Assembly (NCBI GenBank): GCA_041664925.1
Contig: JBAYJV010000002.1
Span: 136,302 to 200,301 of the forward strand
Length of the DNA stretch: 64,000 bases
Direction of reading: 5' to 3'
Source: Minisyncoccota bacterium
Lineage (GTDB): Bacteria > Patescibacteriota > Minisyncoccia > JBAYJV01
In this document: in pieces, positions 25,264-42,512 of the stretch
Layout of the letters: the number at the start of each line of letters is the position of its first letter
Position numbering within the stretch: the first letter of the stretch is position 1
The notes under the pieces: model-generated
The model's database searches: none
What the model saw: only the letters and a program-made list of their open reading frames with translations
Told to the model about the DNA's origin: nothing
Program-made: the position numbers and the translations under genes

Positions 25264-25311
25264 AGTAGTAAGGTTACAGATAATTGCCTATTTTTCTTTA
25301 ACCTTTTTTAG

Positions 25312-25332
25312 TTAGTGTATCCTCTACAATTA
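25312..25332. promoter_or_regulatory. Candidate NrtR operator 1 (TTAGTGTATCCTCTACAATTA), overlapping the pnuC promoter/TSS
   Basis: GT-N7-AC core with TTAGTGT/ACAATTA arms; half-sites identical to the site at 25433-25453. Confidence 0.55.
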
Positions 25333-25432
25333 GTATAGCGCGAAAAAAAAGTTTGTCAATAGATAAGGGCCTTTTTTGTGAAAAAACCCCTTATTGTGGA
25401 TAAACCACTTGACAAGATTTTTCTTGGGAGTA

Positions 25433-25453
25433 TAATTGTACTAGATACACTAA
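25433..25453. promoter_or_regulatory. Candidate NrtR operator 2 (reverse complement TTAGTGTATCTAGTACAATTA), overlapping the -10/TSS of nrtR (autoregulation)
   Basis: Lies just after TTGACA(25410)-16-TATAAT(25432); same half-sites as site 1. Confidence 0.55.
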
Positions 25454-25465
25454 GTTATCAAATTA

Positions 25466-26148
25466 TGAAAAAAGAAGCTGTTCGGGAAAAAAAATATAAG
25501 TTTGCAGTCATTGCCACTGATGTTGTTTTATTTACCGTAAAGGATGAAAAACTCCAGGTCCTGCTTATTAAGATGAAAAAGAAATTATATAAGGAACACT
25601 GGGCGCTTCCCGGCGGTTTGATTAAATCTCAGGAATCATTGGAAACGGCAGCGAAAAGAAATTTGCTTGCTAAATCCGGTGTAAAAAATATTTATCTTGA
25701 GCAGCTCCGCACTTTTGGCGACATCAGCCGCGATCCTTTTGGAAGAGTCGTTTCGGTTGCTTATTTCGCCCTGATACCTTATAGCGGCATCAAATTGAAA
25801 ACCACCAAAAAATACGCCGGCATCAATTGGTTCCCGATTAAAAAACTTCCTGATTTAGCATACGATCATAAAAAAATGATTGCTTTGGCAGTTAAGCGAC
25901 TGAAAGCAAAACTTGGCTATACCAATATTGTTTATAGTCTTCTACCTCAGGAATTTTCCTTAAGCGATCTTCAGGAAACATACGAAATCATTTTAAATAG
26001 AAAACTCGACAAAAGAAATTTCCGCAAGAAAATCCTTTTATCAAAACTCCTGATAAGAACAAATAAAAAGGAAGGGGGAATGCCTCACAGGCCAGCAGTG
26101 ATTTATCGCTTCAAACAGCGCAGCCCCCAGATTATCGATCTGCTTTAA
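25466..26148 (+). CDS. nrtR: NrtR-family transcriptional regulator (Nudix domain + C-terminal winged HTH)
   Basis: Nudix-like 'EHWALPGGLIKSQESLETAAKRNLLAKSG'; C-terminal 'LPQEFSLSDLQETYEIILNRKLDKRNFRKKI...HRPAVIYRF' wHTH characteristic of NrtR. The ORF track starts at a GTG at 25378, but the ATG at 25466 follows a perfect promoter. Confidence 0.75.
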
Positions 26149-26175
26149 TTAACGCCTATTTTTTTTCCTCATTAG

Positions 26176-26196
26176 TTAGTGTATAAAACACACTTA
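26176..26196. promoter_or_regulatory. Candidate NrtR operator 3 (TTAGTGTATAAAACACACTTA, near-perfect palindrome)
   Basis: Between nrtR and the PP2C gene; GT-N7-AC core. Confidence 0.55.
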
Positions 26197-26243
26197 AAAG
26201 GGTTTAGTTCTTCCTGATTTTTACAAATTTTTTTACCCCTTAA

Positions 26244-26264
26244 TTAGTGTTAATAATACACATA
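26244..26264. promoter_or_regulatory. Candidate NrtR operator 4 (TTAGTGTTAATAATACACATA), overlapping the likely island promoter
   Basis: Followed by CATACT -10-like element and the AGTTCTTTA start motif at 26272. Confidence 0.5.
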
Positions 26265-26345: not shown

Positions 26346-27215
26346 GTGAATGTAATGAAAAATCAATTTGAGATCGCCGGCGGAACTGTTCTGGGAACCA
26401 ATCATCAAAGATGCGGAAAAAATAATCAGGACGCTTTTTTATGGCAAATCACAGAAGATGCGGTTGTCATCGTTGTTGCTGATGGCTGCGGCTCTAAGCC
26501 ACATAGCGAAGTAGGAGCGAAAATCGGCAGCCAATTGATAGTTAATGAAATCATTACCAATCTATATGAGAATGGATTCCTAGATGCGCTTGGAAATGAT
26601 ATCGCCACAAATAACCTCTGGTCTTTAATAGAAAGAAATGTGCTGGAAAAAATCTACGCTCTGGCTCATTCAATGGACCGAGATCTTCATGCTCAGGCAA
26701 TTGCCGATTATTTTCTCTTCACAATGATCGGTGCCATCGCCACAAAAAATAAAACCATAATTTTTTCTCTTGGTGACGGCGCCTACATCATTAACGGAGA
26801 AGTAACACAAATCGGTCCCTTTCCTGACAATGCTCCTCCTTATCTCGCTTATCAATTACTGGACCCCCAGACTCTTGATATCGATCAAAGACTGCTTCAC
26901 ATCAAGACAAAGCGCATCATCGAAACACCTGAAATCAAAAATTTGCTCATCGGCACTGACGGCGTCTGCGATTTAATCAGACAGTCAGAAAAACAAATTC
27001 CCGGCAGCCAAGACCAGGTTGGTCAGATAAATTGGTTCTGGGAAAACGACAAATGTTTTTCCAATCCGGATATGATCAGACGGCGCTTGTCGATGATGAA
27101 CCGCCAAAGCTTAAGAATTGATGAAAAAAAACATCTCGCCAAAGAATCGGGAATTCTGCCAGACGACACAACTCTTGTGGTAATGAGGCAAAAAAAAGGA
27201 GGCGACAAGATGTGA
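26346..27215 (+). CDS. PP2C-family serine/threonine phosphatase-like protein
   Basis: 'GTNHQRCGKNNQDAF', 'VVADGCGS' metal-binding Asp motifs, C-terminal 'IGTDGV'; stop overlaps the kinase start by 4 nt. Confidence 0.7.
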   Translation: MNVMKNQFEIAGGTVLGTNHQRCGKNNQDAFLWQITEDAVVIVVADGCGSKPHSEVGAKIGSQLIVNEIITNLYENGFLDALGNDIATNNLWSLIERNVLEKIYALAHSMDRDLHAQAIADYFLFTMIGAIATKNKTIIFSLGDGAYIINGEVTQIGPFPDNAPPYLAYQLLDPQTLDIDQRLLHIKTKRIIETPEIKNLLIGTDGVCDLIRQSEKQIPGSQDQVGQINWFWENDKCFSNPDMIRRRLSMMNRQSLRIDEKKHLAKESGILPDDTTLVVMRQKKGGDKM

Positions 27216-29077
27216 ATGAAATCTATGTCAACGGACAACGCGTCCGCCTCAGTCAAAATAAACTCATCGGCCAGGGCGGCGAAGCGGAAATCTATGATTT
27301 GGGCAATGGCAAGGCGCTTAAGGTTTTCAAAACACCGGACCATCCCGACTTCCAGGGAAATCCTGTAGAACAGGCAATTGCCAGAGAGCGGATTTTGGAA
27401 CACCAACAAAAACTCAAGACATTTCCCAAAAATCTGCCCCACCGCATCATTGCACCCGAAGATCTGGCGTTTGATAGCACAACAAGGCAAATTGCCGGTT
27501 ATGTTATGCGCTATCTCAAACAAACAGAAGTGCTGATAAAGTATAGCGACCGCAGTTTCCGCGAACAAAGAATTTCCCAGGAAACGGTGACTAAGATTTT
27601 CCTTGATCTTTATAAAACAGTTTCGGAAGCCCATCGGACCGGCGTCGTCATCGGTGATTTCAATGATTTGAATGTCCTGGTCTCAGGGAATGAAGCCTAT
27701 CTGGTTGATGTTGACAGCTATCAGTTTGGGAAGTTCCTCTGCAAGCTCTTTACTGAGCGCTTTGTTGATCCCTTGCTTTGCGATCCAAAAGAAACAAGGC
27801 CAGTACTTGCTTTCCCTCATAACCAAAATTCCGATTGGTACGCTTTCGCTATCATGCTGATGCAATGTCTGCTTTATGTGGGACCGTACGGAGGAATTTA
27901 TAGGCCAAAAAAAGCTCCCCAGAAAATCGTAACGCAGGATTCAAGACCGCTTAAAAGGATTACGGTTTTTCATCCTGATGTCCAGTACCCAAAACCGGCT
28001 ATCCGCCTTGATGTTTTGCCGGATGAAATGCTTGAATATCTGCGCCTTACTTTCGAAAAAGACCAAAGGCGCGTTTTCCCAGAAAACCTGATTCAGAGTC
28101 TATGCTGGAAAAAATGCCTGGTCTGCGGCACAGAACATGCGCGCAATTCCTGTCCCCAGTGTTTCAAAGCTATTGTCAAAGAAATTGTCCATTTCAAAGG
28201 CCATGTTTCAGCAAGAGATATTTTCAGGACTAAGGGTATTATTTTAAAAGCAGGTCTTAACGGAAAAAACTTCCTTTGGCTCTATTACGAAGATGGTTGC
28301 TTTAAAAGAGAAAATGGCGCGATTGTCGCCCGAGAAAAACTCGATCCGCGAATGCGTTTCGGAATCAGTGACGGATCAACCCTGATCGCCAAAGGTGATG
28401 AACTTTATTTATTTAGGACAAACCAGGCGCCTGTCAAAACCAACATCGGAACTTTCCAAAACTTGCCAATGTTTGACGCCAATGAAAATCATATTTACTG
28501 GATAGAAAATAATCAACTGTTCCGTGATGGCCCATTTGGTAAGGAAGCAATCGGTAAAATTCTTGAAAACCAAACGATTTTCTGGGTTGGTCCAGAATTC
28601 GGATTCGGTTTCTATCGCGCAGGAAATCTAACCATCGCCTTTGTCTTCGACAAAGAAAAACTGGGCATCAATGACCAGGTAAAACTTCCACCCATTAAAG
28701 GACAATTAATTAGTTGCGAATGCTTCTTCGATAAGGAGCGCTGCTGGCTTTTGATCTCAACTCAGCAAAAGGGAAAAATCATTAACGATTGCGTGGTTAT
28801 TTTGAAAAATGGCGCTGTAGAATGCGTGGCGCAAGCAACTCAAGATGATGGATCCTGGCTGGGAACACTCAAGGGAAAATGCGCTTTCCGACAGTTCCTT
28901 TTCGCTCCGACTGATGAAGGTATTGTAAGAACGGAAATTGAACAGGGACAAATCGCCAAGATAAATCATTTTCCTGACACAGAGCCTTTTGTGGATAAAG
29001 ATTCACTCCTTTTTACGGACCAGAACGGCATTTATGCTGTTAACCGCCAGGATATCAAGCTCCTAAGAATCGATTAG
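27212..29077 (+). CDS. Atypical protein kinase (Gly-rich loop GQGGEAEIY, VAIK-like ALKVFK, GDFNDLN catalytic loop, DVDS) + Cys4 zinc ribbon + beta-rich C-terminal domain
   Basis: Kinase-fold motifs; 'CLVCGTEHARNSCPQCF' zinc ribbon; translationally coupled to the PP2C gene. Confidence 0.65.
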   Translation: MNEIYVNGQRVRLSQNKLIGQGGEAEIYDLGNGKALKVFKTPDHPDFQGNPVEQAIARERILEHQQKLKTFPKNLPHRIIAPEDLAFDSTTRQIAGYVMRYLKQTEVLIKYSDRSFREQRISQETVTKIFLDLYKTVSEAHRTGVVIGDFNDLNVLVSGNEAYLVDVDSYQFGKFLCKLFTERFVDPLLCDPKETRPVLAFPHNQNSDWYAFAIMLMQCLLYVGPYGGIYRPKKAPQKIVTQDSRPLKRITVFHPDVQYPKPAIRLDVLPDEMLEYLRLTFEKDQRRVFPENLIQSLCWKKCLVCGTEHARNSCPQCFKAIVKEIVHFKGHVSARDIFRTKGIILKAGLNGKNFLWLYYEDGCFKRENGAIVAREKLDPRMRFGISDGSTLIAKGDELYLFRTNQAPVKTNIGTFQNLPMFDANENHIYWIENNQLFRDGPFGKEAIGKILENQTIFWVGPEFGFGFYRAGNLTIAFVFDKEKLGINDQVKLPPIKGQLISCECFFDKERCWLLISTQQKGKIINDCVVILKNGAVECVAQATQDDGSWLGTLKGKCAFRQFLFAPTDEGIVRTEIEQGQIAKINHFPDTEPFVDKDSLLFTDQNGIYAVNRQDIKLLRID

Positions 29078-29155: not shown

Positions 29156-30217
29156 ATGAGCACGAAGAAAACAAAGGTCGCCCAACTCCCTCTTCCCAAG
29201 CACTATGATCCGCAGAATGCCACGAATGCCGATTATAGCGTTCGCGACATAACCCTGCTTCAAACCTGCGCTGAAGCCTGGCGCAAAACTCACAAAATTC
29301 ATCCTGTAAACGATGATGCTAAAAATGTTCAGATGCTTATCATTGATGACCAGGTTGATTTCAGCTTCCCGACAGGGTCCCTTTATGTGGCCGGTCGCTC
29401 AGGCACCGGCGCCATGGATGCCCATCAGAGACTTGTTGAATTCCTTTACCGATACCTCGACTTGATTTCCGGGATTACCTGCACAATGGATACTCACCTG
29501 CCTTATCAGATTTTCTATCCCAGCGCCCACCTTTTGCCGGACGGAAGCCACCCTCAACCCAACACCGTCATTTCTGCCAAGGATTATCGCGACGGAAAGT
29601 ACGAACCTAATCCGGCAATGGCTGCTCAGATTGGTTTGAGTGTGCTTGACCTAAGACGGCAATTCATCCATTACTGCGAACAATTGGAGAAAACCGGCAA
29701 ATACATGCTTTATCTCTGGCCCTATCACTGCATGCTCGGCTCTCCGGGACATCGCTTAGCTGGTGTTGTTGATGAAGTCCGCCTCTTCCATAGTTTTGCG
29801 AGAGGCGCAGCCAACATCCCGGCGATTAAGGGTGGCAATCCTTTGACCGAGCACTACTCGATTTTCTCACCAGAAGTGACAACTCTTTGGGACGGAAGAC
29901 CTATTCCTCAGGCGCAGAAAAATGAGAGACTGATCAAAACTCTCTTTGAAGCAGATGTGGTTATTATGGCGGGACTCGCGTCCAGCCACTGCGTCAAGGA
30001 AAGCATCGCCGATTTCCTGAAAGAAATCAAAGCCCAGGACGAATCCCTGGTAAAGAAAGTTTACATTCTTGAAGACTGCACTGCTGCAGTTGTCATTCCT
30101 TCGGGACCTGATTTTACCGACGATGCGAATAAGGCTTTGAAGGAATTTGAAAACGCCGGAATGCACGTTGTCAGATCAACTGACCTGATCGAATCCTGGC
30201 CTGAAATCAGGCTTTAG
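29156..30217 (+). CDS. pncA: Nicotinamidase-like cysteine hydrolase (PncA/isochorismatase family, long 353-aa form) - paralog 1
   Basis: 'MLIIDDQVDF' (Asp), 'LWPYHCMLGSPGH' (PncA WPxHC signature), 'KGGNPLTEHYSIF', 'IMAGLASSHCVKES' (catalytic Cys). Confidence 0.75.
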   Translation: MSTKKTKVAQLPLPKHYDPQNATNADYSVRDITLLQTCAEAWRKTHKIHPVNDDAKNVQMLIIDDQVDFSFPTGSLYVAGRSGTGAMDAHQRLVEFLYRYLDLISGITCTMDTHLPYQIFYPSAHLLPDGSHPQPNTVISAKDYRDGKYEPNPAMAAQIGLSVLDLRRQFIHYCEQLEKTGKYMLYLWPYHCMLGSPGHRLAGVVDEVRLFHSFARGAANIPAIKGGNPLTEHYSIFSPEVTTLWDGRPIPQAQKNERLIKTLFEADVVIMAGLASSHCVKESIADFLKEIKAQDESLVKKVYILEDCTAAVVIPSGPDFTDDANKALKEFENAGMHVVRSTDLIESWPEIRL

Positions 30218-30288
30218 GAACCAAAAAAAACGGAGGCAGGCAAGAAAGCTTGTCTGCCTCCACTCTCTCAAAAGCAAAGGAGGCTTCT

Positions 30289-31083
30289 GTGAGCGATAGC
30301 GCAAAAAAACTGATTCAGTCGGCTGCGCAGGAAGGCACAATTTCTCCTGCCACAGCAAAAGCTCTGACAGTTCACGACGTAGGTATGGAAATCGAAGCGG
30401 CTTTGGGAGTCAATGTTGACGACGTGAAGTCAACCGAAGTTGTTCTTGTTACCTTCCTGATTGACGATTCGGGCTCCATTGAAGGAGCGGGAAATACCGC
30501 AAATGTCATGCTTGGACACAATCTTGTTCTCGATGCTCTGATGAAAACCAAGCAAAAAAACAACATTCTCGTTCATACAAGAACCCTGAACGGCACGATT
30601 ATAACGCCTTATTGTCTGTTAGAAAATGCTGTTCAGCTTGATGCTTCAAACTATTTCCCTGTTGGCGGCACTCCGCTTTACGATGAGACCGTCGTAATTC
30701 TTGGAACAGTTATTGCTAAAACGGAACAGTTTTCCAAAAACGCCGTTCCAGTAAGAACAGTAACAATCATTATCACCGACAGCTGCGATCTTCATTCTCG
30801 CAAATACCGACGCCCTCAGGATGTGGCACCCATTGTCCAGGATATGTTTAAAACAGAACAGCACATTATTGCCGGTATGGGCATTGATGACCATCAAACC
30901 GATTTCAAAAAAGTTTTCGGCGATATGGGAATTCTGCCCCAGTGGATTCTGACGCCGGACAATGACCCTCACGAAATCCGCAAGGCTTTCCTGATGGTTT
31001 CCCAGTCAGCTACCAAAATCAGCCAGAACGCCCAGGGTTTCGCTCAAGCCAGCCTCGGAGGTTTCGGTAAAACAGCTCCTTAA
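30289..31083 (+). CDS. von Willebrand factor A (vWA) domain protein, TerY-like
   Basis: MIDAS 'LIDDSGSI' (DxSxS), 'GGTPLY' Thr motif, 'ITDSCD'. GTG start after RBS aaggagg; the ORF track begins upstream at a TTG at 30250. Confidence 0.7.
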   Translation: MSDSAKKLIQSAAQEGTISPATAKALTVHDVGMEIEAALGVNVDDVKSTEVVLVTFLIDDSGSIEGAGNTANVMLGHNLVLDALMKTKQKNNILVHTRTLNGTIITPYCLLENAVQLDASNYFPVGGTPLYDETVVILGTVIAKTEQFSKNAVPVRTVTIIITDSCDLHSRKYRRPQDVAPIVQDMFKTEQHIIAGMGIDDHQTDFKKVFGDMGILPQWILTPDNDPHEIRKAFLMVSQSATKISQNAQGFAQASLGGFGKTAP

Positions 31084-31350
31084 TTGTTCTTTGACAAAAT
31101 CAGGGAGGGATTGTGAAAGCATAATCCCTCCCTTTTTCAAAAAATTATTGTCATTATTCTTAAAAACGTTTAAAATCATTGACAAAACGCAAATTTATTA
31201 TAGAATAGTATGTCAGAATGATAAAGCAATTTTAGAAAATTGAAGCGGAAAAATTCGGCTCTAATTTTCTAGCCTTGATTGGTATCGAGGCTAAAGTACC
31301 TAAACAAAGCTCATAAAAAAACAGCGATAAAGGACAAGGAGGTCCAAGAA

Positions 31351-32331
31351 ATGGAAAGAATCGAAAAGGTTGATTATTTGTCAGCTGCTGGTCTGGGAAA
31401 AACCTGTCAGAAAATGCAAGGTGTCAAACCTGCATCTCGAGATCGGATACGAATTGGTTTATTGATTATTGATCCTCAAAACACATTCTGCCACCCAGAA
31501 CTTGCAGAACTTCTGGTGCCTCATGCTTGGGAAGATAATACCAGATTGATGCATTTTATCTTAGATAATATTGCAAGAATCACAGCTATTGACGTTTCTC
31601 TTGACACGCACTCGCCAATGCAGATTTTTCACCCAATCTTCTGGGTGGATAAAGATGGCAATCATCCTGCACCTGGTACCGAGATTACTCACGAAAATGT
31701 TGTAAGAGGTATGTGGCGAATCAATCCAGAAGTTGGCTATAGATTCAGTAGAACTCAGAAATGGCTTGATGATTATGCTCTCTGGTATACCAGCGAACTT
31801 GAAAAAAGAGAAAAAAAACCTTTAATGATCTGGACTTACCACGGAATCTTGGGAAGTTTTGGTCATGCATTAGATTCATCTGTAGAATACGCAATCTTTG
31901 TTCATGAAATGGCCCGCCAGACAACAAGATTCACCATCCTTAAGGGCACTAATCCGTTTACCGAATACTATTCGATCGTTGGTCCGGAAGTAAGTAAAGC
32001 CCACGATGGATCAGTAATAGACAATTTCAACTTTGAGCTAATAAGACGATTCTTGGGGTATGATACTCTGATTATTGCTGGTCAATCTAGAAGCCACTGT
32101 GCTCCTGAGTCTTTAAATGACATTATGAATAATGCTGAGTCTGCTGATGAGTTTGCTCCGAGATCAAAACTAAGAATTGGTAATATTTACTTCCTTGATG
32201 ATTGTAGTTCTTCAATTCCTGGTTTTGAGAAACAGACAAATGAAGCCTTTGCGCGTTTCGCTGCTCGTGGTCTTCACATCGTCAAATCCACCACTCCGAT
32301 GGAGGAGTGGCCCAATATTGAGCTTAACTAA
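31351..32331 (+). CDS. pncA: Nicotinamidase-like cysteine hydrolase (PncA/isochorismatase family) - paralog 2
   Basis: 'LLIIDPQNTF', 'IWTYHGILGSFGH', 'KGTNPFTEYYSIV', 'IIAGQSRSHCAPES'; same architecture as paralog 1; RBS aaggagg before ATG 31351. Confidence 0.75.
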   Translation: MERIEKVDYLSAAGLGKTCQKMQGVKPASRDRIRIGLLIIDPQNTFCHPELAELLVPHAWEDNTRLMHFILDNIARITAIDVSLDTHSPMQIFHPIFWVDKDGNHPAPGTEITHENVVRGMWRINPEVGYRFSRTQKWLDDYALWYTSELEKREKKPLMIWTYHGILGSFGHALDSSVEYAIFVHEMARQTTRFTILKGTNPFTEYYSIVGPEVSKAHDGSVIDNFNFELIRRFLGYDTLIIAGQSRSHCAPESLNDIMNNAESADEFAPRSKLRIGNIYFLDDCSSSIPGFEKQTNEAFARFAARGLHIVKSTTPMEEWPNIELN

Positions 32332-32407
32332 AAGCTTTGAGGCGAGAGAAAAGCTTCTCGCCTCCTTTCTCCGACTACTTAGTAAATATTAGGTGCTCGA
32401 AGTAAGT

Positions 32408-32554
32408 TAGTTCTTTAAAAAATAAATATAAGGCTCTAATACAGGCTTATGCGAAACAAAGCGTAGCCCCAGTACCAGAATTCGCTTCGCTCATTCGGTA
32501 CAGGGCGTAAGAGTTTATAAGTTTCGCTTTGCTCAACAACAAACACTAACGGAG
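32408..32554 (+). promoter_or_regulatory. Conserved structured leader, copy a (…taaggctctaatacaNgcttatgcgaaacaaagNgtagccccNgtacc agaattcgcttcgctcattc ggtacagggcgtaag…ctaacggaggtg)
   Basis: About 90% identical over roughly 110 nt to copies at 35510-35662 (+) and 47385-47510 (-); hairpin cccNgtacc/ggtacaggg; ends in a shared RBS. Confidence 0.6.
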
Positions 32555-32560
32555 GTGCGC

Positions 32561-34449: not shown

Positions 34450-34642
34450 AGCTTTGGGGCGAGAGAGAAAAACTTTTCTCGCCCCCTTTCTCCAGTCACT
34501 TATTATTAGGTGATTGAAGGAAGTCTGTTAGTAAGCTCAGGACAAATCCTTCGACAGGCTCAGGATAAATCCTTCGATAAATTTGTGGTTAACATGTCTA
34601 ACCACTCAGGACAAGTCAGTTCTTTAAAAAATAGACAAGGAG

Positions 34643-35377
34643 ATGATAAGAGTGAAAACGATCATGATTAACGGCAAAGAAGTACCCGTAACAGGAGAAA
34701 GCGTTGACCAAGCTATTAATAGTATAATTTTTAAGGATTGGTTGGCATCATTGAATCGACTGTTCGTAATCAAATCAATCCATTTTCAATCAGTTGACAT
34801 TTCTCCTAGGACATCAAGGGTAAAATTTATCAAAGCTAAAATAGAATTAATTGATTGTGATGGAAGTAAATTTACGAACATCATTTTCATGCGTGGCGGT
34901 GCAGTTACAATTCTCTTTGTTATTCATGTGGATAAAGAAGAATTCACAATTTTGACTCGTCAGCCTCGTCTACCCTCAGGATCATTTAGACTATTGGAAA
35001 CTCCTGCCGGTACAATTGACACGAGCGAAACTGCTGTCAAAGTTGCCGTCAGAGAAATTTGGGAAGAAGTGGGTATTAAGATTCGCGAAAATCAATTAAT
35101 AGATCTAACTGCGCACTTTCATGAAAAACGCCATAAGGGTATTTATACATCACCTGGAGCATGTGATGAGTTCCTTCGAATCTTTCTCTGTGAAATCACT
35201 ATGACAGATGGTGAGTTGGAGCAATTAAGAGGAAAACTTACAGGACTTAGAGATGAAGGCGAAAGAATTACCTTGGAGGTTTTTCGCCTAAGAGAACTTC
35301 CTTTTGAAGCTCCTGATGCCAAATCTCTTGCCGCTCTAGCCTTGTATGATGCTTACATACGAGAGCACAGTACTTAG
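34643..35377 (+). CDS. Nudix hydrolase (ADP-ribose / NAD-derivative pyrophosphatase-like)
   Basis: Nudix box 'GTIDTSETAVKVAVREIWEEVGI'. Confidence 0.7.
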   Translation: MIRVKTIMINGKEVPVTGESVDQAINSIIFKDWLASLNRLFVIKSIHFQSVDISPRTSRVKFIKAKIELIDCDGSKFTNIIFMRGGAVTILFVIHVDKEEFTILTRQPRLPSGSFRLLETPAGTIDTSETAVKVAVREIWEEVGIKIRENQLIDLTAHFHEKRHKGIYTSPGACDEFLRIFLCEITMTDGELEQLRGKLTGLRDEGERITLEVFRLRELPFEAPDAKSLAALALYDAYIREHST

Positions 35378-35397
35378 TATAAAAGCACATAAAACAA

Positions 35398-35462
35398 GAG
35401 GCGACTTAAGTCGTCGCCTCCTTTCTTGGATGACTTAGAAAACTAAGTCATCGAAGTAAGTC
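35398..35462 (+). repeat. Identical ~65-nt junction module: terminator gaggcgacttaagtcgtcgcctc + hairpin ATGACTTAGaaaaCTAAGTCAT + cgaagtaag
   Basis: Exact second copy at 36828-36892; related modules at 32336-32400 and 34452-34520, all followed by AGTTCTTTAA. Confidence 0.7.
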
Positions 35463-35509
35463 CTCCGATAGATTCGATTTACTCACTACAAGCTAAACTC
35501 AGGACAAGT

Positions 35510-35662
35510 AGTTCTTTAACAATATAATATAAGGCTCTAATACAAGTTTATGCGAAACAAAGTGTAGCCCCGGTACCAGAATTCGCTTCGCTCATTCGGT
35601 ACAGGGCGTAAGAGCTTCTAAATTTCGTTTCACTCAACAAGAGTCTCTAACGGAGGTGTAAC
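35510..35662 (+). promoter_or_regulatory. Conserved structured leader, copy b
   Basis: See 32408-32554. Confidence 0.6.
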
Positions 35663-36826
35663 ATGCAAATAGTCTACACTGGAGAAAATCTTCCTAAAAA
35701 GATTGTCAAATCTATTTTTCTTGCCGGTCCAACGCCGCGATCAAAAGAAACGAATTCGTGGCGACCGGAAGCCTTAAGAATTCTCGAAGAGAAAGGTTTT
35801 AATGGAACAGTTTTTGTTCCGGAATTCAGAAATCGCGACAAAGAATACGCTGACGATATGGAAGAAAATACTATCTCTTGGGAAGAACAAGCTCTGAATA
35901 TGGCCGATTGTATTCTTTTCTGGATACCGCGAGATCTCAAAACCATGCCGGCTTTCACAACGGATGTTGAGTATGGCGAATGGTTTAAATCAGGCAAGAT
36001 TGTTTTGGGCGCTCCAAAGAATGCTCCCAAAATGAGCTATCTTTTGAAACGCGGACAGAAATATTACATTCCGCAGGCTACAACTCTTGAAAATACTATT
36101 GATATGGCCCTAGCTATGATTGGCAATGGCGCGCTGCGTGTTGAAGGAGAATGCCAGATACCATTACACATCTGGAAAACCGGATCTTTCCAATCGTGGT
36201 ATCAAGCCCAGATTCAAGCAGGCAATCGGCTGCACAGCGCCAAAGCAGAATGGGTATTCAGAGTTGGACCAAAGAAACAAATATTCTTCATTTGGATTCT
36301 CCATGTTGATATATATATCACTGCTGAAGAAAGACACAAGACCAATGAAGTTGTTATCGGCCGTCCCGACATTTCTACGGTCGCTCTGTATATAAGAGCT
36401 GATGACATTATGGATTCTGATATTGTTCTTATTAAAGAGTTTTGCAGTCCTGCTGCGACTGCCGATGGATATGTCTGGGAACCTCCCGGCGGCTCTTCAA
36501 TTAAAGGAGAGTACGATCCCCGAAAGTTAGCAGTAGATGAGGTTTTTGAGGAAACCGGACTTAAGATTAGCCCGGATAGAATCATTTTCAATGGCGCGCG
36601 GCAAATCTATGGAACCTTGTTGTCACATAAGGCATTTCTTTTCTCTGCGGAAATCACTAGAAACGAATTGGATTGGCTTATATCTCAAATTGGCATCGTT
36701 CACGGAGTAGAAAAAGATACTGAAAGAACATATGTGGAAATTGTCAAACTTCGAGATATTTTGAGCCAAGAACTTGTAGATTGGAGCGCATTAGGTATGC
36801 TTTTCGCTGCGCTCACAAAGAAATAA
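35663..36826 (+). CDS. Fusion protein: N-terminal nucleoside 2-deoxyribosyltransferase-like (NDT/Rcl-like Rossmannoid) domain + C-terminal Nudix hydrolase domain
   Basis: N-terminal 'IFLAGPTPRS...W...CILFWIP...EYGEWFKSGKIVLGAP' NDT-like pattern; C-terminal Nudix box 'GGSSIKGEYDPRKLAVDEVFEETGL'. Confidence 0.6.
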   Translation: MQIVYTGENLPKKIVKSIFLAGPTPRSKETNSWRPEALRILEEKGFNGTVFVPEFRNRDKEYADDMEENTISWEEQALNMADCILFWIPRDLKTMPAFTTDVEYGEWFKSGKIVLGAPKNAPKMSYLLKRGQKYYIPQATTLENTIDMALAMIGNGALRVEGECQIPLHIWKTGSFQSWYQAQIQAGNRLHSAKAEWVFRVGPKKQIFFIWILHVDIYITAEERHKTNEVVIGRPDISTVALYIRADDIMDSDIVLIKEFCSPAATADGYVWEPPGGSSIKGEYDPRKLAVDEVFEETGLKISPDRIIFNGARQIYGTLLSHKAFLFSAEITRNELDWLISQIGIVHGVEKDTERTYVEIVKLRDILSQELVDWSALGMLFAALTKK

Positions 36827-36827
36827 G

Positions 36828-36892
36828 CGCTTGAGGCGACTTAAGTCGTCGCCTCCTTTCTTGGATGACTTAGAAAACTAAGTCATCGAAGT
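36828..36892 (+). repeat. Junction module, exact copy of 35398-35462
   Basis: Identical sequence. Confidence 0.7.
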
Positions 36893-37016
36893 AAGAAGTT
36901 CTTTAACAAATAATCCTCCTTCGCCCCGGCTTGCCGGGGCTTCGGAAGGATGTAATATTTTCTAAATCTCGTTTCTCTCGGTAAGAAAATCTAACAAACA
37001 CTAACGGAGGTGTAAG

Positions 37017-37832
37017 ATGCAAGGAAAAATCGTCTATTCTGTTATTTTCCCCGAACCAGGTTCTCTTGGAAAAGAAAGGTCAGATGATGTCAGAAAATGG
37101 CTAGAAGAATTCTTGATCCCAGCTGGCATTGCAACTCTCTATGAAGACGAAGCTAATGCCTATCTGGTCGCAACTGGTGATGGTGGTCTCATAAGAGCTA
37201 TTCGTGAAAAACATAATAAAGGAAAGATTTTTGTCGGGGCTAACCGCGGAACTTTAGGTTTCTTACTAAATCCTATCCAGAAAATTAAAGATATCCCTTT
37301 GGATTTCAATGAATTACAACTAGTCGACCTTGATCTTATTCAGGTAACATTTATTCTAAAAGATGGCTCAAAAGTTGGACCATTTTTAGTGTTTAATGAT
37401 GTCATGTGCGGTACCAAACCCGCCGGCTGGATTAAATTCACTATTCAGGGATCATTGAGCTATTATCCTAACAGAACCTGCTGGGGAAATTGCGTTTTTG
37501 TGTCAACGCCTCAGGGAGCCACAGGACTGGCACTTAAAGCTCGAGGGACTGGAGCGGTTCTGCCACTTGATAGTAAAACCTGGTTTGTTGGCGGATTCGC
37601 GATCGGACCTTATCCTTGCGATATTGTTCAGCCTCAGAAAATCACGATTGAGGTTGAGTCCAGAGAGGATCCTATTTACGCTAATGCTGACGGACGTGCT
37701 AGAGAAGTTGAAAATGTCGCAAAAGTCATCGTTGAGCCAACAGATAAATCCGTAACCTTAGGATTCTTAAAAAGTATCGACTTTGCGGCACGAAGAACTC
37801 AATTAGCCCAAAAAACGGAAAGGGGTGAGTAA
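37017..37832 (+). CDS. nadK: NAD kinase-like (ATP-NAD kinase family)
   Basis: 'VATGDGGLIRA' (GGDG), 'NRGTLGFL' (NxGxxGFL), 'STPQGATGLALKARG' motifs. Confidence 0.7.
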   Translation: MQGKIVYSVIFPEPGSLGKERSDDVRKWLEEFLIPAGIATLYEDEANAYLVATGDGGLIRAIREKHNKGKIFVGANRGTLGFLLNPIQKIKDIPLDFNELQLVDLDLIQVTFILKDGSKVGPFLVFNDVMCGTKPAGWIKFTIQGSLSYYPNRTCWGNCVFVSTPQGATGLALKARGTGAVLPLDSKTWFVGGFAIGPYPCDIVQPQKITIEVESREDPIYANADGRAREVENVAKVIVEPTDKSVTLGFLKSIDFAARRTQLAQKTERGE

Positions 37833-37833
37833 A

Positions 37834-38799
37834 ATGACAACAAACTCGGCATCTCGCGTTGTAATCTTCACTACTGAGGCGTCGCGATATTTCGCCGAAC
37901 TAATTGCCCAAAGATTGGAAATTCCAATTACCGAAACCCATCGAAGAACTTTTGGTGGCGGTGAAAGATACTATCGTCTCGATATTGACGACAGAGGAAG
38001 CTTAGTTAATAAGGTTGCGATCATTGTAGGATCAACTCATACTGATGAAGATTTTCTTGAAATTGCAAGGATTGGCAGAACCTTAGCTTCATGCGGAACA
38101 TCACGGCGCATCTTCGTCATTCCTTTCTTTGGTTATTCGACCATGGAAAGAGATAAAAAGCCGGGAGAAGTTGTCACGGCAAAAGATTGCGCATGTATTC
38201 TTTCAAGCATACCCAATTCTGGGCTTGGTAATGTTTTTCTAATGATGGATTTGCACGAAGCTGGGTTGGTCCATTATTTTGAGGGTGACTGTGTTAGAAG
38301 AGAGCTTTATGCAGAATCTATTCTGGTTCCAGCTGCCATAGATCTTGGTCTTCGAAATTTCGTAATGGCGACCACCGATCTTGGCAGATCTGATTGGGTG
38401 GAAACATATGCCAAGAAACTCAAGGCAGGCGACATGGCTTTTGTTAGAAAAGCTCGCGATTACGAAATTACTAAAGTTCTTTGCGTTATTGGAGATGTTT
38501 TTGGCGAGATTCTCGTCCCATATGACGATATGATTAGAAGCGGAAGTACTTTCTTTAAGGCAATGCATGCTTATCTTGAAAAAGGAGCAAGTCAGTTTTA
38601 TCCGCTTTTAGGCCACTTAGCATTTAATGATGAATCTGTTATTCAAGAAATTGAAAACGATCCAACGATTGTCCATGTAATTGGCACCAACACTCATTCT
38701 ATGAGTCAGCATCCGTTGGTAAAACAATCTAAGAAAATCGAGGTTGTTGATGTGTCGCCGATTTTCGTAGAAGCAATCCAACAAATAATCGCAGTTTGA
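37834..38799 (+). CDS. prs: Ribose-phosphate pyrophosphokinase family protein (Prs-like; divergent flexible loop FGGGERY)
   Basis: 'IPFFGYSTMERD', 'MDLHEAG', 'VPYDDMIRSGSTF' align with Prs motifs (PYYGYARQDR, DLHA, DDIIDTAGT). Confidence 0.65.
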   Translation: MTTNSASRVVIFTTEASRYFAELIAQRLEIPITETHRRTFGGGERYYRLDIDDRGSLVNKVAIIVGSTHTDEDFLEIARIGRTLASCGTSRRIFVIPFFGYSTMERDKKPGEVVTAKDCACILSSIPNSGLGNVFLMMDLHEAGLVHYFEGDCVRRELYAESILVPAAIDLGLRNFVMATTDLGRSDWVETYAKKLKAGDMAFVRKARDYEITKVLCVIGDVFGEILVPYDDMIRSGSTFFKAMHAYLEKGASQFYPLLGHLAFNDESVIQEIENDPTIVHVIGTNTHSMSQHPLVKQSKKIEVVDVSPIFVEAIQQIIAV

Positions 38800-38809
38800 A
38801 AGGAGAAGA

Positions 38810-39799
38810 ATGTTTAAAAGACCACTGGAAGAGGTTGATGAAAGATTAATCCAAGAAGCAAAAGGTTTAGCTGTTGGCCGAAAACGCGTTTCAGTTGCAT
38901 TTTCTGGTGGCGTTGATTCTACGGTTGTGGTAACAATTCTCTGCCGTGCTTTTGGAGCTGAAAATGTTCTTGCGTTCTATCGCAATATTAGAAGTAATCC
39001 TCTACATGAAGCACATGTCTACGAATTACAAGAACTATTAGGTTTTAATCTTATGGCTGTTGATGCTAATCCAATTTACGACACAATTGTTGGTCAAGCT
39101 CGCGAATGGTTTCAAACACATGGCTACGAGTGGCATAACGAAAATCAACCGGGCACAGAAGAAAGCGGATTCACCAACGCATTCGCTTCTCTCAAGTCCC
39201 GCATCACTACTCCCTATATGGGATTTCTTGCTAAGGCTTGGGATGGTGGAAAAGGTATAATCTTTGGCACAGGAAATGCCGAAGAAGACGGACTTGTCCG
39301 CTACTTTGACAAGTATGGAGACGGAGCGGTTGATAATAATATTTTGAGTGGTCTAACAAAGATGGAAGTCAGACAGATTGCTCTTTATTACGCCAAGGTT
39401 TATGGCAAAGACGGTAAAGAAGCTCAAATTTTCAGAGCTATTGCTGAAAAGTTACCATCAGCCGATCTTAAAGCATGTGGAGATGTTCACAATGACGAGA
39501 GCGAACTGACTTTTTGGGCAAGAACCATGGGATACGATATTCAAATTTCCTATGGCGATTGCGAAAAAGAAGGCAATCTTGCTTGGGCGCTCAAACAAGA
39601 TCTTGATCACGGAGTCATAACCGGTAGCAAAAATCATTGGGGAAGCACTGGTCTTAGTTCATACCTTGACTACACAGATAAACAGATTAAGCTCATTGCG
39701 TTCCTGCGAAAAATTGAGCGCTCAACCAGGCATAAAGCTAATCCTAATATGCCTGGATTGTCGAGAGTTACTCTTAGGATGGAAGGTTACGTAGACTAG
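38810..39799 (+). CDS. nadE: NH3-dependent NAD+ synthetase (PP-loop ATP pyrophosphatase)
   Basis: 'VAFSGGVDSTVV' PP-loop; NadE-like length and layout. Confidence 0.75.
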   Translation: MFKRPLEEVDERLIQEAKGLAVGRKRVSVAFSGGVDSTVVVTILCRAFGAENVLAFYRNIRSNPLHEAHVYELQELLGFNLMAVDANPIYDTIVGQAREWFQTHGYEWHNENQPGTEESGFTNAFASLKSRITTPYMGFLAKAWDGGKGIIFGTGNAEEDGLVRYFDKYGDGAVDNNILSGLTKMEVRQIALYYAKVYGKDGKEAQIFRAIAEKLPSADLKACGDVHNDESELTFWARTMGYDIQISYGDCEKEGNLAWALKQDLDHGVITGSKNHWGSTGLSSYLDYTDKQIKLIAFLRKIERSTRHKANPNMPGLSRVTLRMEGYVD

Positions 39800-39810
39800 G
39801 AGGAGGCACC

Positions 39811-40164
39811 ATGACCGAAGAAACAGTGCTTCAGAAGGCAAGACGATTAAGAGGCGAAATTGCAGTACTTCAAGTCGACCTAGATGGAACAAGAAGAGAA
39901 TTAGATGCTCTAGAGAAATCATGTCGTCATGATTGGACAAATCCTGAGCGTATTGATGATCGAGTCATTTCAGGATATCAAGATCATGGTGATCCTCCAG
40001 GCACTATAGGAGTGGATCGCAGACTTCCCTGTTACGTGCCTGAACAAAGGTTTCCTCGATGGATGCGCAAATGTAGAACATGCGGATTAGCTCAAATCAC
40101 TGAAGATTTTGAAGAAAAAACAGGTTCCACAAAAGTTCCTTCATTTCCTGCTACGCAGCATTAA
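39811..40164 (+). CDS. Small protein with putative Cys zinc ribbon (CRHDW ... CRTCG)
   Basis: RBS aggaggagg; coiled N-terminus; last gene of the plus-strand island operon. Confidence 0.45.
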   Translation: MTEETVLQKARRLRGEIAVLQVDLDGTRRELDALEKSCRHDWTNPERIDDRVISGYQDHGDPPGTIGVDRRLPCYVPEQRFPRWMRKCRTCGLAQITEDFEEKTGSTKVPSFPATQH

Positions 40165-40214
40165 AACAAATCTCCCTAGCCAGCGCGCTAGGGAGTTTTT
40201 CTTTGTCTACATTT

Positions 40215-41969
40215 TTATGGTTGTAACCTGATATCTAAATATTTTTTCCAAATATCAATCGTACCACCGCCACTTTGCCATTTTTGCCAAAATTCTTCAT
40301 AATCTTTTTTTGTAGGAATCGCTGCGCAAAAATCTTTTCCTTGTTTTACATAATCAGAATCAATCCATTGCAATAATCCAATCTTTCTAAATTCCCACGC
40401 TTCATCATAACGATAAACTTTCCCTGAAATATAAACCATCTGAGTACTTCCATTTTCTTTAGTAATTCTAAACCAACTAAATGGATTTGAATCAATTTGC
40501 CATTTTTTGCTTTTTTCAAATTTATTGACAATTTCCGCAATCTGCTTAATATCTTCTTCAGTTAAATTACCCTGCATGATTAAGTCTGCGGCTGATGGCG
40601 CGCCTTCTGGCGCTCTTTCTTGAATAACATATCGAAAAGGCGGACCTTCTTTATCGCTATCGATAATATTTAAATGCGGAACGCCAAACTCATCCAAAGT
40701 CTTCTGACGTTCGATTATCTGATACATTGACTTAAAAACATTATGATCATTGCGTGTATCACCGCGGACAAACTTCAAAACCAAATCTGGATATTCTTTA
40801 AGTCTTAAAATAATTTTTTTAGTTCCAATTTTAATTGATTCTCTGTCAATTTGAAATTCTTGACCGCCAATATTAACGACTTCTCTTTCTAGGTCAACAC
40901 TAATTGAGTTAAGGATTTTTTTATAGTCTACTTCTTCGGGTAATATTTTTTGTTCTTCAGCATCTTCAAAAACAGCTTCCGGTTTTTCGGCAACAACGAC
41001 CATGTGTGTCATTGGAAAATCTGTTTTTTCAAGTCCTTCGTCGGTCATTTTATAAAGTCCGATTTTTCCTTGAAGTCGATTTTTTAGAATCCACTCGTTC
41101 GGATCAGGAACAATCTGAACATTTACGTAACCAATTTCTTCTAAAACTCTTTTAGCCTCCTCAGGTGTCCAATAAGTATATTTTTCTTCAATCTCGCTTC
41201 GCCAATTTCCGGTATAATCTTTGCGCAAATAAAATTCGTGCGCCCATTCAGGACTTAATTTTATATATTCTTCTCCATCAATAATTACTCTTTCATAATC
41301 AAAAGCATTACCGCCGCGAAATTCTTGATGGAAACGATCAAACAAAGCCGATGTTGAAAGTTCGTTATAATCAATATCTTCTTTGACAGTTCCTTCAGGC
41401 ACTTTTTCCAGACCGGCTTTTGAAATAATTTTCATATAAACTGGTTCCTGATTTTCCGGCTTTGCGAAGTCTCGAACAATTACTCTGCCACCAGCCTCAA
41501 GTTCTAAAAAAGTATTTTCCATAGCCTTGCGTGCACTACCTTGACCGCCAAAAGACTCTGCTTCGTGAAGGCTTGTGGAATAATATTTAACCTTGACTGA
41601 ACCTGAGGGAAAAACTTTTTCCCGGGCATCAGCATGAAGTAAACGCACTAAAGAACCCCTGTCGCTTGCTTGTTCTAATTGTTCGTGAGAAAGATCTTCA
41701 CCATAAACACGCGTATGAGGAAATGTGCGTGCAATCAGCTCCGCTACCTGCCCGGTACCAGAACCAGCATCAACGATAACATCACCGTCCTCAACATTAA
41801 AATAGGGAGCAATTGAATCAACTTTTGCCAGGGTTGCAGCGTCAAGCGATTGATTATAAATCGTAAAATCACGGTGTTCGTCAGCCACCTCAAAATGTTC
41901 TTCTAATGCTTCTCTATTAAGCATTTCCCCTCTGTCAACATTCTCAATTTTGCTCTTTTGTTCAGACAT
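40215..41969 (-). CDS. Class I SAM-dependent methyltransferase domain + ~350-aa C-terminal domain of unknown function
   Basis: 'VIVDAGSGTGQVAELIA' motif I, acidic motif II 'YGEDLS'; convergent with the island operon. Confidence 0.55.
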   Translation of the reverse strand: MSEQKSKIENVDRGEMLNREALEEHFEVADEHRDFTIYNQSLDAATLAKVDSIAPYFNVEDGDVIVDAGSGTGQVAELIARTFPHTRVYGEDLSHEQLEQASDRGSLVRLLHADAREKVFPSGSVKVKYYSTSLHEAESFGGQGSARKAMENTFLELEAGGRVIVRDFAKPENQEPVYMKIISKAGLEKVPEGTVKEDIDYNELSTSALFDRFHQEFRGGNAFDYERVIIDGEEYIKLSPEWAHEFYLRKDYTGNWRSEIEEKYTYWTPEEAKRVLEEIGYVNVQIVPDPNEWILKNRLQGKIGLYKMTDEGLEKTDFPMTHMVVVAEKPEAVFEDAEEQKILPEEVDYKKILNSISVDLEREVVNIGGQEFQIDRESIKIGTKKIILRLKEYPDLVLKFVRGDTRNDHNVFKSMYQIIERQKTLDEFGVPHLNIIDSDKEGPPFRYVIQERAPEGAPSAADLIMQGNLTEEDIKQIAEIVNKFEKSKKWQIDSNPFSWFRITKENGSTQMVYISGKVYRYDEAWEFRKIGLLQWIDSDYVKQGKDFCAAIPTKKDYEEFWQKWQSGGGTIDIWKKYLDIRLQP

Positions 41970-42053
41970 AAAAATTAAAAAGTTTTTTTAATTTGTTTAT
42001 ATTGCTATTGATTTTTTAAAAAAATGTGCTAATGTAAAAAATAGGAGGCGAGA

Positions 42054-42512
42054 ATGGATATCAAGGCAAAATCGGCATACCCCGCAAGCGCATTAAGCAA
42101 TTTCGCTCCGCATTCTTTTGAGATAGATGGCGTTAAGTGCGCTTCGATGGAAGGGTTTCTTCAGTCGCTTAAAGTCACGGATCCATTCTTTCAAATAGAT
42201 GTTTGTCAGCTAGTTGGCTCTGATGCCAGACATTGGGGCGACGAACACAATGCCGAATGGAGAAAAGCTCAGACATTGTGGTGGCAAAGCAAAGCCTATG
42301 ACCGCCATAGTCCTGAATATCAAGAACTTCTTGACCGAGCTTTTGAGGCGCTTCTCAAAAACGAAGATTTCAGAAGAGCTCTCTTGATAACCAATCAAGA
42401 AACCCTGACTCATTCCATCGGTCAGACCGACCCGCACATTTCCATTCTTACGCAGGAAGAATTCTGTTCGCGCTTAATGAAAATGCGCAGTAGATTGCTT
42501 CTCAAAAAGTAA
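42054..42512 (+). CDS. NADAR (YbiA-like) domain protein
   Basis: 'LSNFAPHSFEIDGVKCASMEGFLQSLK' signature of the NADAR/DUF1768 family; terminator gaccgcc...ggcggtc + T-run follows. Confidence 0.65.
   Translation: MDIKAKSAYPASALSNFAPHSFEIDGVKCASMEGFLQSLKVTDPFFQIDVCQLVGSDARHWGDEHNAEWRKAQTLWWQSKAYDRHSPEYQELLDRAFEALLKNEDFRRALLITNQETLTHSIGQTDPHISILTQEEFCSRLMKMRSRLLLKK

Follow-up and report, generated by a model that had tools for sequence, protein, structure and literature searches.

Cleavage of nicotinamide adenine dinucleotide (NAD) is a central weapon of bacterial immunity, and the rebuilding of NAD is a counter-weapon of phages. The TerY-P triad of signalling proteins is said to exist also as a stand-alone defence variant, reported by Gao et al. 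in 2020. According to PMC11090510, which refers to Anantharaman et al. 2012, this triad is composed of a TerY-like vWA protein, a PP2C phosphatase, and a Ser/Thr kinase with a C-terminal zinc ribbon. The repressor NrtR recognises a palindromic site of 21 bp built around GT-N7-AC, and is counteracted by ADP-ribose as anti-repressor (PMC2330246). Systems centred on an ADP-ribosylglycohydrolase (ARG) and regulated by NrtR or WYL proteins have been predicted to counteract viral ADP-ribosylation, and include vWA chaperones (Iyer et al. 2022, PMC9503650, section 3.8); neither nicotinamidase nor PP2C is mentioned in that paper. The NAD reconstitution pathways (NARP) of phages consist of Adps and Namat in NARP1, Nampt and Nmnat in NARP2, and PnuC with a NadR-like protein in NARP3 (PMC13464706). 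Here we describe a cassette of four genes, encoding a PP2C phosphatase, an atypical protein kinase, a long nicotinamidase-like amidase and a vWA protein, which lies next to nrtR in an island of NAD genes. The island is part of a 64-kb window (the whole stretch of DNA analysed) from the chromosome of a Candidatus Paceibacterota bacterium of the candidate phyla radiation (CPR). Because the cassette is strictly conserved behind NrtR operators across phyla, and is found in huge phages without the repressor, it probably represents a regulated step, so far undescribed, by which NAD is rebuilt once it has been cleaved. No description of this gene combination was found in the literature searched, in agreement with an earlier note on the same DNA, which did not recognise it as a described system.

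Conservation and operators of the four-gene unit

In the window, the cassette is encoded on the forward strand in the order PP2C-type Ser/Thr phosphatase (26346–27215; PP2C_2, PF13672, E 1e-24), kinase (27212–29077), long nicotinamidase-like cysteine hydrolase (paralog A, 353 aa, 29156–30217) and vWA protein (30250–31083). The operon is closed by an intrinsic terminator on the same strand (31102–31137), where a hairpin of −24.5 kcal/mol (z −6.3) is followed by a U run. The amidase family was searched in one genome per species and found in 303 of 185,579 species genomes. We examined 84 amidase-seeded loci (the best 80 and four others) and 36 kinase-seeded metagenome loci with at least 1 kb of sequence upstream and 2.6 kb downstream; genes were counted by tblastn and nearest neighbours were assigned by Pfam scans. 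All 36 kinase-seeded loci contain PP2C, a PncA-like amidase and vWA, and the four genes occur together in 45 of the 84 amidase-seeded loci. The triad and PncA therefore form a conserved neighbourhood in other genomes, which the earlier note had proposed as a check. Two gene orders are seen, PP2C-kinase-amidase-vWA and amidase-vWA-PP2C-kinase, and both preserve the adjacency of PP2C to kinase and of amidase to vWA. The four-gene unit is strictly conserved and is not a chance juxtaposition.

The cassette is spread over more than 12 phyla and one Woesearchaeote. It is present in Planctomycetota, Acidobacteriota, Chloroflexota, Actinomycetota, Gemmatimonadota, Verrucomicrobiota and Myxococcota, as well as in Cyanobacteria, Gammaproteobacteria and many CPR lineages. 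Cultured Myxococcus, Minicystis rosea and Leptolyngbya have a compact nrtR-PP2C-kinase-amidase-vWA arrangement with no further NAD genes nearby. A five-gene core, with the second amidase gene of the island (pncA2) as its last member, had been proposed earlier, but pncA2 has its own promoter-like site behind the terminator, and a comparable copy was found in one other locus only (L037). Since the four-gene synteny is strict and the second paralog recurs only there, the unit is best defined as four genes, or five with nrtR.

A cassette carried by huge phages without NrtR was not foreseen in the earlier note. The kinase family is found in 15 IMG/VR contigs of 42–545 kb, and the whole cassette in 13 of 14 testable IMG/VR loci, with pncB nearby in five; neither nrtR nor an operator was detected in any of the 14. 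The ORFs that flank ten of the IMG/VR loci are mostly without a Pfam match, and the genes that could be matched encode phage DNA polymerase, clamp loader, Dda-like helicase and RNA ligase, and further tRNA nucleotidyltransferase, HNH endonucleases, NAD synthetase and nicotinate phosphoribosyltransferase (NAPRTase). Divergent kinase and amidase genes are present in the GenBank huge phages LR745208.1 and LR756511.1 and in a human-gut phage fragment, close to each other in LR745208.1 and the gut fragment and about 10 kb apart in LR756511.1. The NDT-Nudix fusion encoded downstream of the cassette (35663–36826) has a full-length, 45%-identical homolog in LR745208.1, a 485-kb huge phage (L182, 4075–5217), positioned a few kb from the kinase-like and amidase-like genes of that phage. 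In a structural comparison with viral proteins, the kinase was matched best by a full-length protein of a gut Myoviridae (E 3e-26). A megablast search of window positions 25–45 kb gave no match to GenBank phages.

The operator motif in the window, TTAGTGT-N7-ACACTAA (21 bp), agrees with the published NrtR palindrome. With at most two mismatches it occurs four times, compared with 0.24 sites expected, and none of 100 shuffles gave four sites. All four sites flank the gene for NrtR, a Nudix-related ADP-ribose-responsive repressor (25466–26148, forward strand; NrtR_WHD E 8e-23, NUDIX E 2e-13). Operator 1 (TTAGTGTATCCTCTACAATTA, 25312–25332) abuts the −10 hexamer of a promoter-like site of pnuC on the reverse strand (25359–25332; 11/12 in the promoter scan). 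Operator 2 (25433–25453) overlaps the forward nrtR promoter TTGACA-16-TATAAT (25409–25436; 12/12), which implies autoregulation, and operators 3 (26176–26196) and 4 (26244–26264) are located upstream of the cassette. The mechanically called nrtR ORF begins with GTG at 25378, but because a perfect sigma-70-type promoter and operator 2 sit inside the extension 25378–25465, the true start is probably ATG 25466.

The 400 bp that precede the cassette contain an operator in 21 of 39 genome loci (1.79 per kb vs a background of 0.10 per kb) and in 23 of 52 metagenome loci (1.32 vs 0.083 per kb), i.e., at 16–18 times background in two independent locus sets. Some of the operator-bearing loci have no nrtR within the sequence examined. 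The nrtR gene is within reach in 23 of 45 cassette loci, compared with 2 of 39 amidase-only loci, and is present in 21 of the 36 kinase-seeded loci. Control of the cassette by NrtR is supported by gene adjacency and by the conserved operators, to which binding is predicted. A pattern search of the window gave no operator before the pncA2, nadD-pncB, Nudix, NDT-Nudix or nadK-prs-nadE units. Because these downstream units lie behind terminators and lack operators, the term NrtR-gated, applied earlier to the entire island, can be retained for pnuC-nadR, nrtR and the four-gene operon only. The accompanying statement that NrtR regulons normally carry only genes for NAD biosynthesis or salvage needs correction, as known regulons include draG, pentose genes, and nrtX/nrtY of unknown function (PMC2330246).

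Predicted properties of the cassette proteins

Searches at E ≤ 0.01–0.1 placed the vWA protein in none of the families of Pfam, NCBIfam or PADLOC, and it has no PDB sequence match. Its AlphaFold model (mean predicted local distance difference test score, pLDDT, 82.7) is matched by Foldseek to the vWA domains of integrin I, Rpn10 and NorD (E 1e-6, probability 1.0). The metal-ion-dependent adhesion site (MIDAS; DxSxS...T...D) is intact, with D72, S74, S76, T141 and D177 invariant across 27 homologs, and the protein ends in a conserved Ser-rich helix and tail; S251, S253 and S258 of this C-terminal helix are invariant. The earlier designation TerY-like is borne out with respect to the vWA fold and the MIDAS, but not as membership of the TerY family, and the label describes architecture only.

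The kinase (621 aa) matches Pfam Pkinase only weakly, at E 0.0075. On the basis of the predicted model, Foldseek matches and invariant residues, it is composed of a kinase domain (residues 1–295), a zinc ribbon (C302, C305, C314 and C317) and a beta-propeller (residues 326–620). The AlphaFold model (pLDDT 88.3) matches Hanks-type kinases, and the best PDB match, over the full length, is the LRRK2 kinase with its WD40 domain. The ATP-binding Lys, the catalytic-loop Asp and Asn, and the four zinc-ribbon Cys residues are all invariant among homologs. An internal zinc ribbon that continues into a beta-propeller is a layout not described for TerY-P in the source cited above. The stop codon of the PP2C gene overlaps the GTG start of the kinase gene (GTGA), with an AAGGAGG ribosome-binding site upstream, which confirms the translational coupling proposed in the earlier note.

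The two amidase paralogs of the island are about 350 aa each and share 33% identity (E 5e-56). Paralog B, the product of pncA2 (31279–32331, forward strand), retains the catalytic residues. An alignment of 24 sequences that contains the two paralogs of the window shows no variation in the catalytic triad D64, K225 and C279, in the metal-site residues D112, H114 and H191, or in W188; in paralog B the corresponding motif reads WTYHG. The weak PDB profile matches of the amidase are all nicotinamidases or cysteine hydrolases, and are aligned exactly at the catalytic and metal motifs. Comparison with a manually entered sequence of Mycobacterium tuberculosis PncA gave an hhalign probability of 95.5%. 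From these motifs we infer, on good grounds, that the amidase is a nicotinamidase. Two larger amidase homologs, P0048 (583 aa) and P0061 (600 aa), were considered as vWA fusions and ruled out since they show no similarity to vWA; P0048, the one of the two that was compared with the kinase, was also ruled out as a kinase fusion. The extra N-terminal segment of about 230 residues in these proteins has no Pfam match, and may reflect either fusion to an unknown partner or an error in gene calling.

The NAD island around the cassette

Proteins of the window were assigned to families by Pfam and NCBIfam profile scans. Housekeeping genes (HisRS, PriA, UvrA, YchF, RsgA and BipA) occupy the flanks. Upstream of nrtR, the reverse strand encodes a NadR-like fusion of nicotinamide mononucleotide adenylyltransferase and ribosylnicotinamide kinase (23720–24718; AAA_28 E 3e-35, CTP_transf_like E 5e-5) and the nicotinamide riboside transporter PnuC (24682–25263; PF04973 E 1e-58). 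Downstream of the cassette, pncA2 is preceded by a promoter-like site (31179–31206, forward strand, 11/12) with no NrtR operator, and is followed on the forward strand by genes for a NadD-like adenylyltransferase (32555–33205; E 2e-10), PncB (NAPRTase; 33184–34449; E 2e-47), a Nudix hydrolase (34643–35377; E 4e-13), the NDT-Nudix fusion (NDT-like E 3e-13, NUDIX E 5e-4), and a unit of NadK-like protein, Prs, NadE and a 117-aa Cys-rich protein (37017–40164) that ends at a terminator (40172–40195). The NadK-like protein has an NCBIfam match only (E 7e-14), under the cut-off; Prs passes the generic Prs subfamily model only (TIGR01251, 130 bits vs a cut-off of 113), and NadE (NAD synthase) is matched at E 1e-17. 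Further downstream are an S-adenosylmethionine-dependent methyltransferase of 584 aa on the reverse strand (40215–41969), of which the C-terminal half (about 250 residues) matches no family, and a T4 gp30.3-type NADAR protein on the forward strand (Phage_30_3; 42054–42512; PF08010 E 8e-55).

ORF calls and translations recovered all genes named in the earlier note, with the order and the strands given there. The interval it assigned to the island contains the right genes, but by starting at 25264 leaves out pnuC and nadR, which its text names; the 117-aa product, listed there as a small zinc-ribbon protein, is Cys-rich but matches no family. The note also held that nicotinamide and ADP-ribose are recycled to NAD(P), and the island indeed encodes every step required. 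No Nampt and no ARG were detected in the window by the family scans, and an Rfam scan of positions 23–44 kb for riboswitches, including the NAD classes, gave sub-threshold chance matches only.

The downstream genes are split by terminator hairpins into the units pncA2, nadD-pncB, Nudix, NDT-Nudix and nadK-prs-nadE with the 117-aa gene. A common modular layout is seen in the intergenic regions 32332–32430, 34450–34530, 35392–35484 and 36827–36920. A hairpin of terminator type, GAGGCGA...TCGCCTC, is followed by another hairpin, GACTTAG-AAAA-CTAAGTC, by GAAGTAAG and finally by AGTTCTTTAA, as if a terminator/promoter cassette had been duplicated and set between genes. In addition, an element of about 130 nt is present in three copies (32421–32554, 35526–35655, and 47381–47502 on the minus strand; nhmmer E 1e-22 to 1e-37). 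The first copy precedes nadD and the second the NDT-Nudix gene, while the third lies beyond the island, upstream of an unannotated ORF. It folds as a long imperfect hairpin and matched no Rfam family.

The GC content is 0.454 in the cassette, 0.416 in the rest of the island and 0.365 outside, so the GC-elevated block described earlier is real. The GC content at third codon positions (GC3) is 0.41 in pnuC, 0.46 in nrtR, 0.43–0.53 in the four cassette genes (highest in paralog A, at 0.53) and 0.45 in the NADAR gene, compared with 0.29–0.39 in pncA2 through nadE and 0.22–0.30 in housekeeping genes. The cassette proteins are 50–70% identical in amino-acid sequence across phyla, including distant phyla of higher GC content. 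Because GC3 differs between the cassette group and the other NAD genes, which are close to the host, the island was not acquired as one module, as had been thought. The best reading of these values is that nrtR and the cassette, perhaps together with pnuC and the NADAR gene, would be a recent lateral arrival beside an older salvage cluster. A prophage origin of the whole island was rejected on account of the housekeeping flanks and the restriction of deviant GC3 to nrtR, the cassette, pnuC and the NADAR gene.

A survey of the neighbourhood of the cassette in other genomes covered 123 proteins, encoded by the closest two genes to either side in 43 loci. The commonest families are NrtR (17) and NAPRTase/PncB (12), while NADAR, NAD kinase, NadD-like and CN-hydrolase proteins account for two each; no recurrent defence family was found among the 123. 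Six additional loci have NADAR genes flanking the cassette. An ARG gene adjoins the cassette in four loci, and is inserted between PP2C and kinase in three of them, at 5381–6196 in Leptolyngbya (L085), at about 5120 in L139, and at about 1227 in L160. The Leptolyngbya cluster is broken up also by genes for Uma2-family endonucleases. In a Blastocatellia locus (L001/L006, 12236–16909), the segment from vWA to nrtR encodes a 173-aa ORF, DUF4291, NADAR, Band_7, a bacterial-type PARG and a 313-aa ORF, and this insert is an ADP-ribose-processing extension of the cassette. The accessory ORFs of L001, L083, L085 and L086 match no Pfam family except DUF4291.

A methyltransferase domain of about 300 residues, related to the 584-aa protein (about 29% identity), is encoded near the cassette in L009 (4183–6516), L065 (4715–7147), L018, L124 and L166. 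In a single metagenome locus (L090, about 12501), a gene downstream of the cassette encodes a 39%-identical homolog of the 117-aa Cys-rich protein (39811–40164). Beyond the island, window positions 45866–57502 hold a long run of small to medium ORFs without Pfam match, typical of CPR dark matter; VTT-domain membrane proteins at 43691–44347 and 49086–49718 are exceptions among the ORFs of this region and its surroundings.

Proposed role and comparison with known systems

NrtR releases DNA on binding ADP-ribose, which together with nicotinamide is the product of NAD cleavage. A nicotinamidase opens Preiss-Handler salvage, and removes a product inhibitor of NAD-consuming enzymes. The reading that we favour, and to which we give an even chance, is that the cassette is an ADP-ribose-induced, phosphorylation-controlled module for clearing nicotinamide, a mobile four-gene operon held off by NrtR in cells. 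Upon cleavage of NAD, free ADP-ribose would accumulate and NrtR would leave its operators. The induced nicotinamidase would convert nicotinamide to nicotinate, which would lift product inhibition of NAD-consuming enzymes and supply PncB, NadD and NadE with substrate for Preiss-Handler salvage. The vWA protein, kinase and PP2C would most likely constitute a TerY-P-like phospho-switch that gates the activity or assembly of the nicotinamidase, with the kinase phosphorylating the vWA protein and PP2C resetting it. The MIDAS of the vWA protein may bind the partner and the propeller of the kinase may serve as input domain, while the Ser-rich C-terminal helix, together with the MIDAS, would be the likely contact and substrate, with S251, S253 and S258 as candidate phosphorylation sites. 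In the CPR genome, nrtR and the cassette would have been inserted beside older, separately transcribed NAD-recycling genes. In huge phages the cassette, which there lacks NrtR and in many cases lies beside pncB or nadE, would presumably serve to rebuild NAD during infection.

Several observations weigh against the favoured reading. What the triad does, and why, and its link to the nicotinamidase, are matters that we infer. The amidases fall below the Pfam and NCBIfam thresholds (PRK11609, 20 bits vs a cut-off of 174) and have no significant PDB sequence match, the best E in a profile search being 0.025; because the family fails curated thresholds, nicotinamidase denotes a predicted rather than a demonstrated activity. 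The amidase occurs without the rest of the cassette in 39 of the 84 amidase-seeded loci, mainly in Thermoanaerobaculia and Holophagales, and no residue was found that distinguishes cassette-linked from solitary amidases. Catalysis therefore needs no partner and no phospho-site is indicated, which leaves nothing in support of the earlier proposal that a PncA paralog is the phospho-regulated step. About half of the testable loci lack both nrtR and an operator within reach. IMG/VR contigs as large as those considered here can include misassigned cellular DNA, and the phage-gene check omitted four contigs of high GC content. PADLOC has no model for the vWA protein or either amidase, and gave only weak matches for the kinase and PP2C (PD-T4-6, MkoA and PDC-M21C).

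A wider version of the favoured reading, which we put forward tentatively, places the cassette on both sides of an NAD arms race as a phosphorylation-gated nicotinamide clearer. It would be induced through NrtR by NADase or ADP-ribosyltransferase attack in cells, and be constitutive in huge phages, where with PncB and NadE it would amount to a fourth, deamidated route of NAD reconstitution; the triad would sense the attack and license the enzyme. Equally tentative is an interpretation as a conflict system, in which a TerY-P-like sensor triad controls a nicotinamidase effector. Cells would destroy nicotinamide in order to starve phage NARP1 and NARP2, which both depend on nicotinamide, or to free NADase effectors from product inhibition, and the phage cassette with PncB and NadE would carry out deamidated NAD reconstitution. 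TerY-P-type triads accompany or act as defence (PMC11090510), and NrtR-type regulators govern predicted anti-ADP-ribosylation systems with vWA chaperones (PMC9503650). The sporadic, laterally transferred distribution (303 of 185,579 species genomes, 50–70% identity across phyla, archaea included), the repressor-less huge-phage copies beside NAPRTase and NAD synthetase, and the recurrence of NADAR (six loci) and ARG (four loci, in three between PP2C and kinase) also fit such a system. However, the nearest neighbours include no recurrent known defence family, the partners being instead NrtR and PncB, and the PADLOC result points in the same direction. Genome-reduced CPR bacteria furthermore keep the cassette within the one NAD salvage cluster that can be seen in them, and neither PncA nor a deamidated (nicotinate) route is mentioned in the NARP literature searched.

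An alternative that we consider unlikely casts the vWA protein as a chaperone that matures the metal-dependent nicotinamidase or loads its metal, in the manner of the vWA partners of MoxR ATPases (for example NorD/NorQ), with the kinase and PP2C driving the cycle in place of an AAA+ ATPase. Adjacency of PncA and vWA is retained in both gene orders, the MIDAS is intact, and the structural matches include the vWA domain of NorD; nicotinamidases also need an active-site metal, and help from a metallochaperone has been reported for PncA (PMC6941528). On the other hand, the amidase family manages without an adjacent vWA in the 39 solitary loci and shows no cassette-specific residues, and no AAA+ partner is present. 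To our knowledge, there is no precedent for a metal chaperone driven by a kinase and a phosphatase. Slightly less likely still is that the kinase is a small-molecule kinase of eukaryotic-like fold, whose substrate would be a pyridine nucleoside, a pyridine nucleotide or an ADP-ribose derivative, in a purely metabolic cassette where PP2C and vWA are ancillary. The very weak Pkinase match (E 0.0075), the best NCBIfam matches to Bud32, lanthionine-synthetase kinase domains and Kdo kinase, the catalytic loop GDFNDLN instead of HRDLKPxN, and the NAD-metabolic nature of all neighbours are in line with this possibility. It is opposed by the structural matches to Hanks-type protein kinases, including LRRK2 over the full length, by the translational coupling to a protein phosphatase, and by the vWA/PP2C/kinase-zinc-ribbon architecture, which is that of protein phospho-switch triads (PMC11090510). 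That a generic signalling triad merely happens to lie beside NAD genes in one genome has a negligible probability, as it is refuted by the synteny counts, with the set present in all 36 kinase-seeded loci and distributed over more than 12 phyla and phages. Nothing speaks in its favour, and only the second PncA paralog, the Nudix genes and nadK-prs-nadE are lineage-specific additions.

If the favoured reading is correct, the cassette would add a regulated nicotinamide-to-nicotinate step to the picture of NAD-centred conflict, with potential importance for the conflict between phage and host. It would provide the first concrete metabolic partner of a TerY-P-like vWA/kinase/PP2C switch, and represent a new class of NrtR target. 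For genome-reduced CPR bacteria, it would mean that a complete NAD recycling locus can be put together from a laterally acquired regulated module and older salvage genes. The strict conservation of the cassette, its presence in Myxococcus, Minicystis and Leptolyngbya, which can be cultured, and the existence of phage versions make these hypotheses directly testable.

Compared with TerY-P, the cassette unites the same three protein types in one operon, with an intact MIDAS and a kinase domain followed by a four-Cys zinc ribbon, here an internal one, and TerY-P, too, is a module that attaches to other functional genes. Unlike TerY-P, the cassette embeds an obligatory enzyme gene, that of the long nicotinamidase, and its kinase is extended beyond the zinc ribbon by a beta-propeller of about 300 residues. 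The cassette is moreover found behind NrtR operators and with NAD salvage neighbours, not with Ter or restriction genes, and no sequence model for TerY or VWA or from PADLOC fits its vWA protein or its kinase. The classical NrtR regulons, nrtR-pncA-pncB(-nadD-nadE) (Rodionov et al. 2008, PMC2330246), share with the cassette a Nudix-winged helix-turn-helix repressor, autoregulation, a 21-bp GT-N7-AC palindrome overlapping promoters, and nicotinamidase, often with PncB, as targets. They differ in that the nicotinamidase of the cassette is a divergent 350-aa form, and that kinase, PP2C and vWA, which are added here, are unlisted in any described NrtR regulon. Canonical PncA (about 185–230 aa, isochorismatase-like) has the same Asp-Lys-Cys triad, DxH and WPxHC motifs and KG...YS(x)F block, but the cassette amidase is extended by about 55 residues at its N-terminus, and about 70 residues are inserted between DxH and WPxHC.

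As for the NARP systems, the phage cassettes are phage-borne genes that would rebuild NAD from its cleavage products, and the pnuC-nadR pair of the window is the cellular counterpart of NARP3 (PMC13464706). In contrast to NARP, the cassette implies the deamidated route from nicotinamide through nicotinate, nicotinate mononucleotide and nicotinate adenine dinucleotide to NAD, in combination with a signalling triad, and the phage cassettes are accompanied by NAPRTase and NAD synthetase. With the ARG-centred systems (PMC9503650) the cassette has in common control by a Nudix transcription factor that senses ADP-ribose, a vWA component (there a "chaperone"), NADAR or Macro proteins that are added in some cases, and a variable architecture that moves laterally. 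Its core enzyme, however, is a nicotinamidase, accompanied by kinase and PP2C, and ARG is found in few variants (L085, L139 and L160); the cassette thus resembles these systems in logic, not in content. Overall, we rate the cassette as a TerY-P-like switch joined to an NrtR-controlled salvage step.

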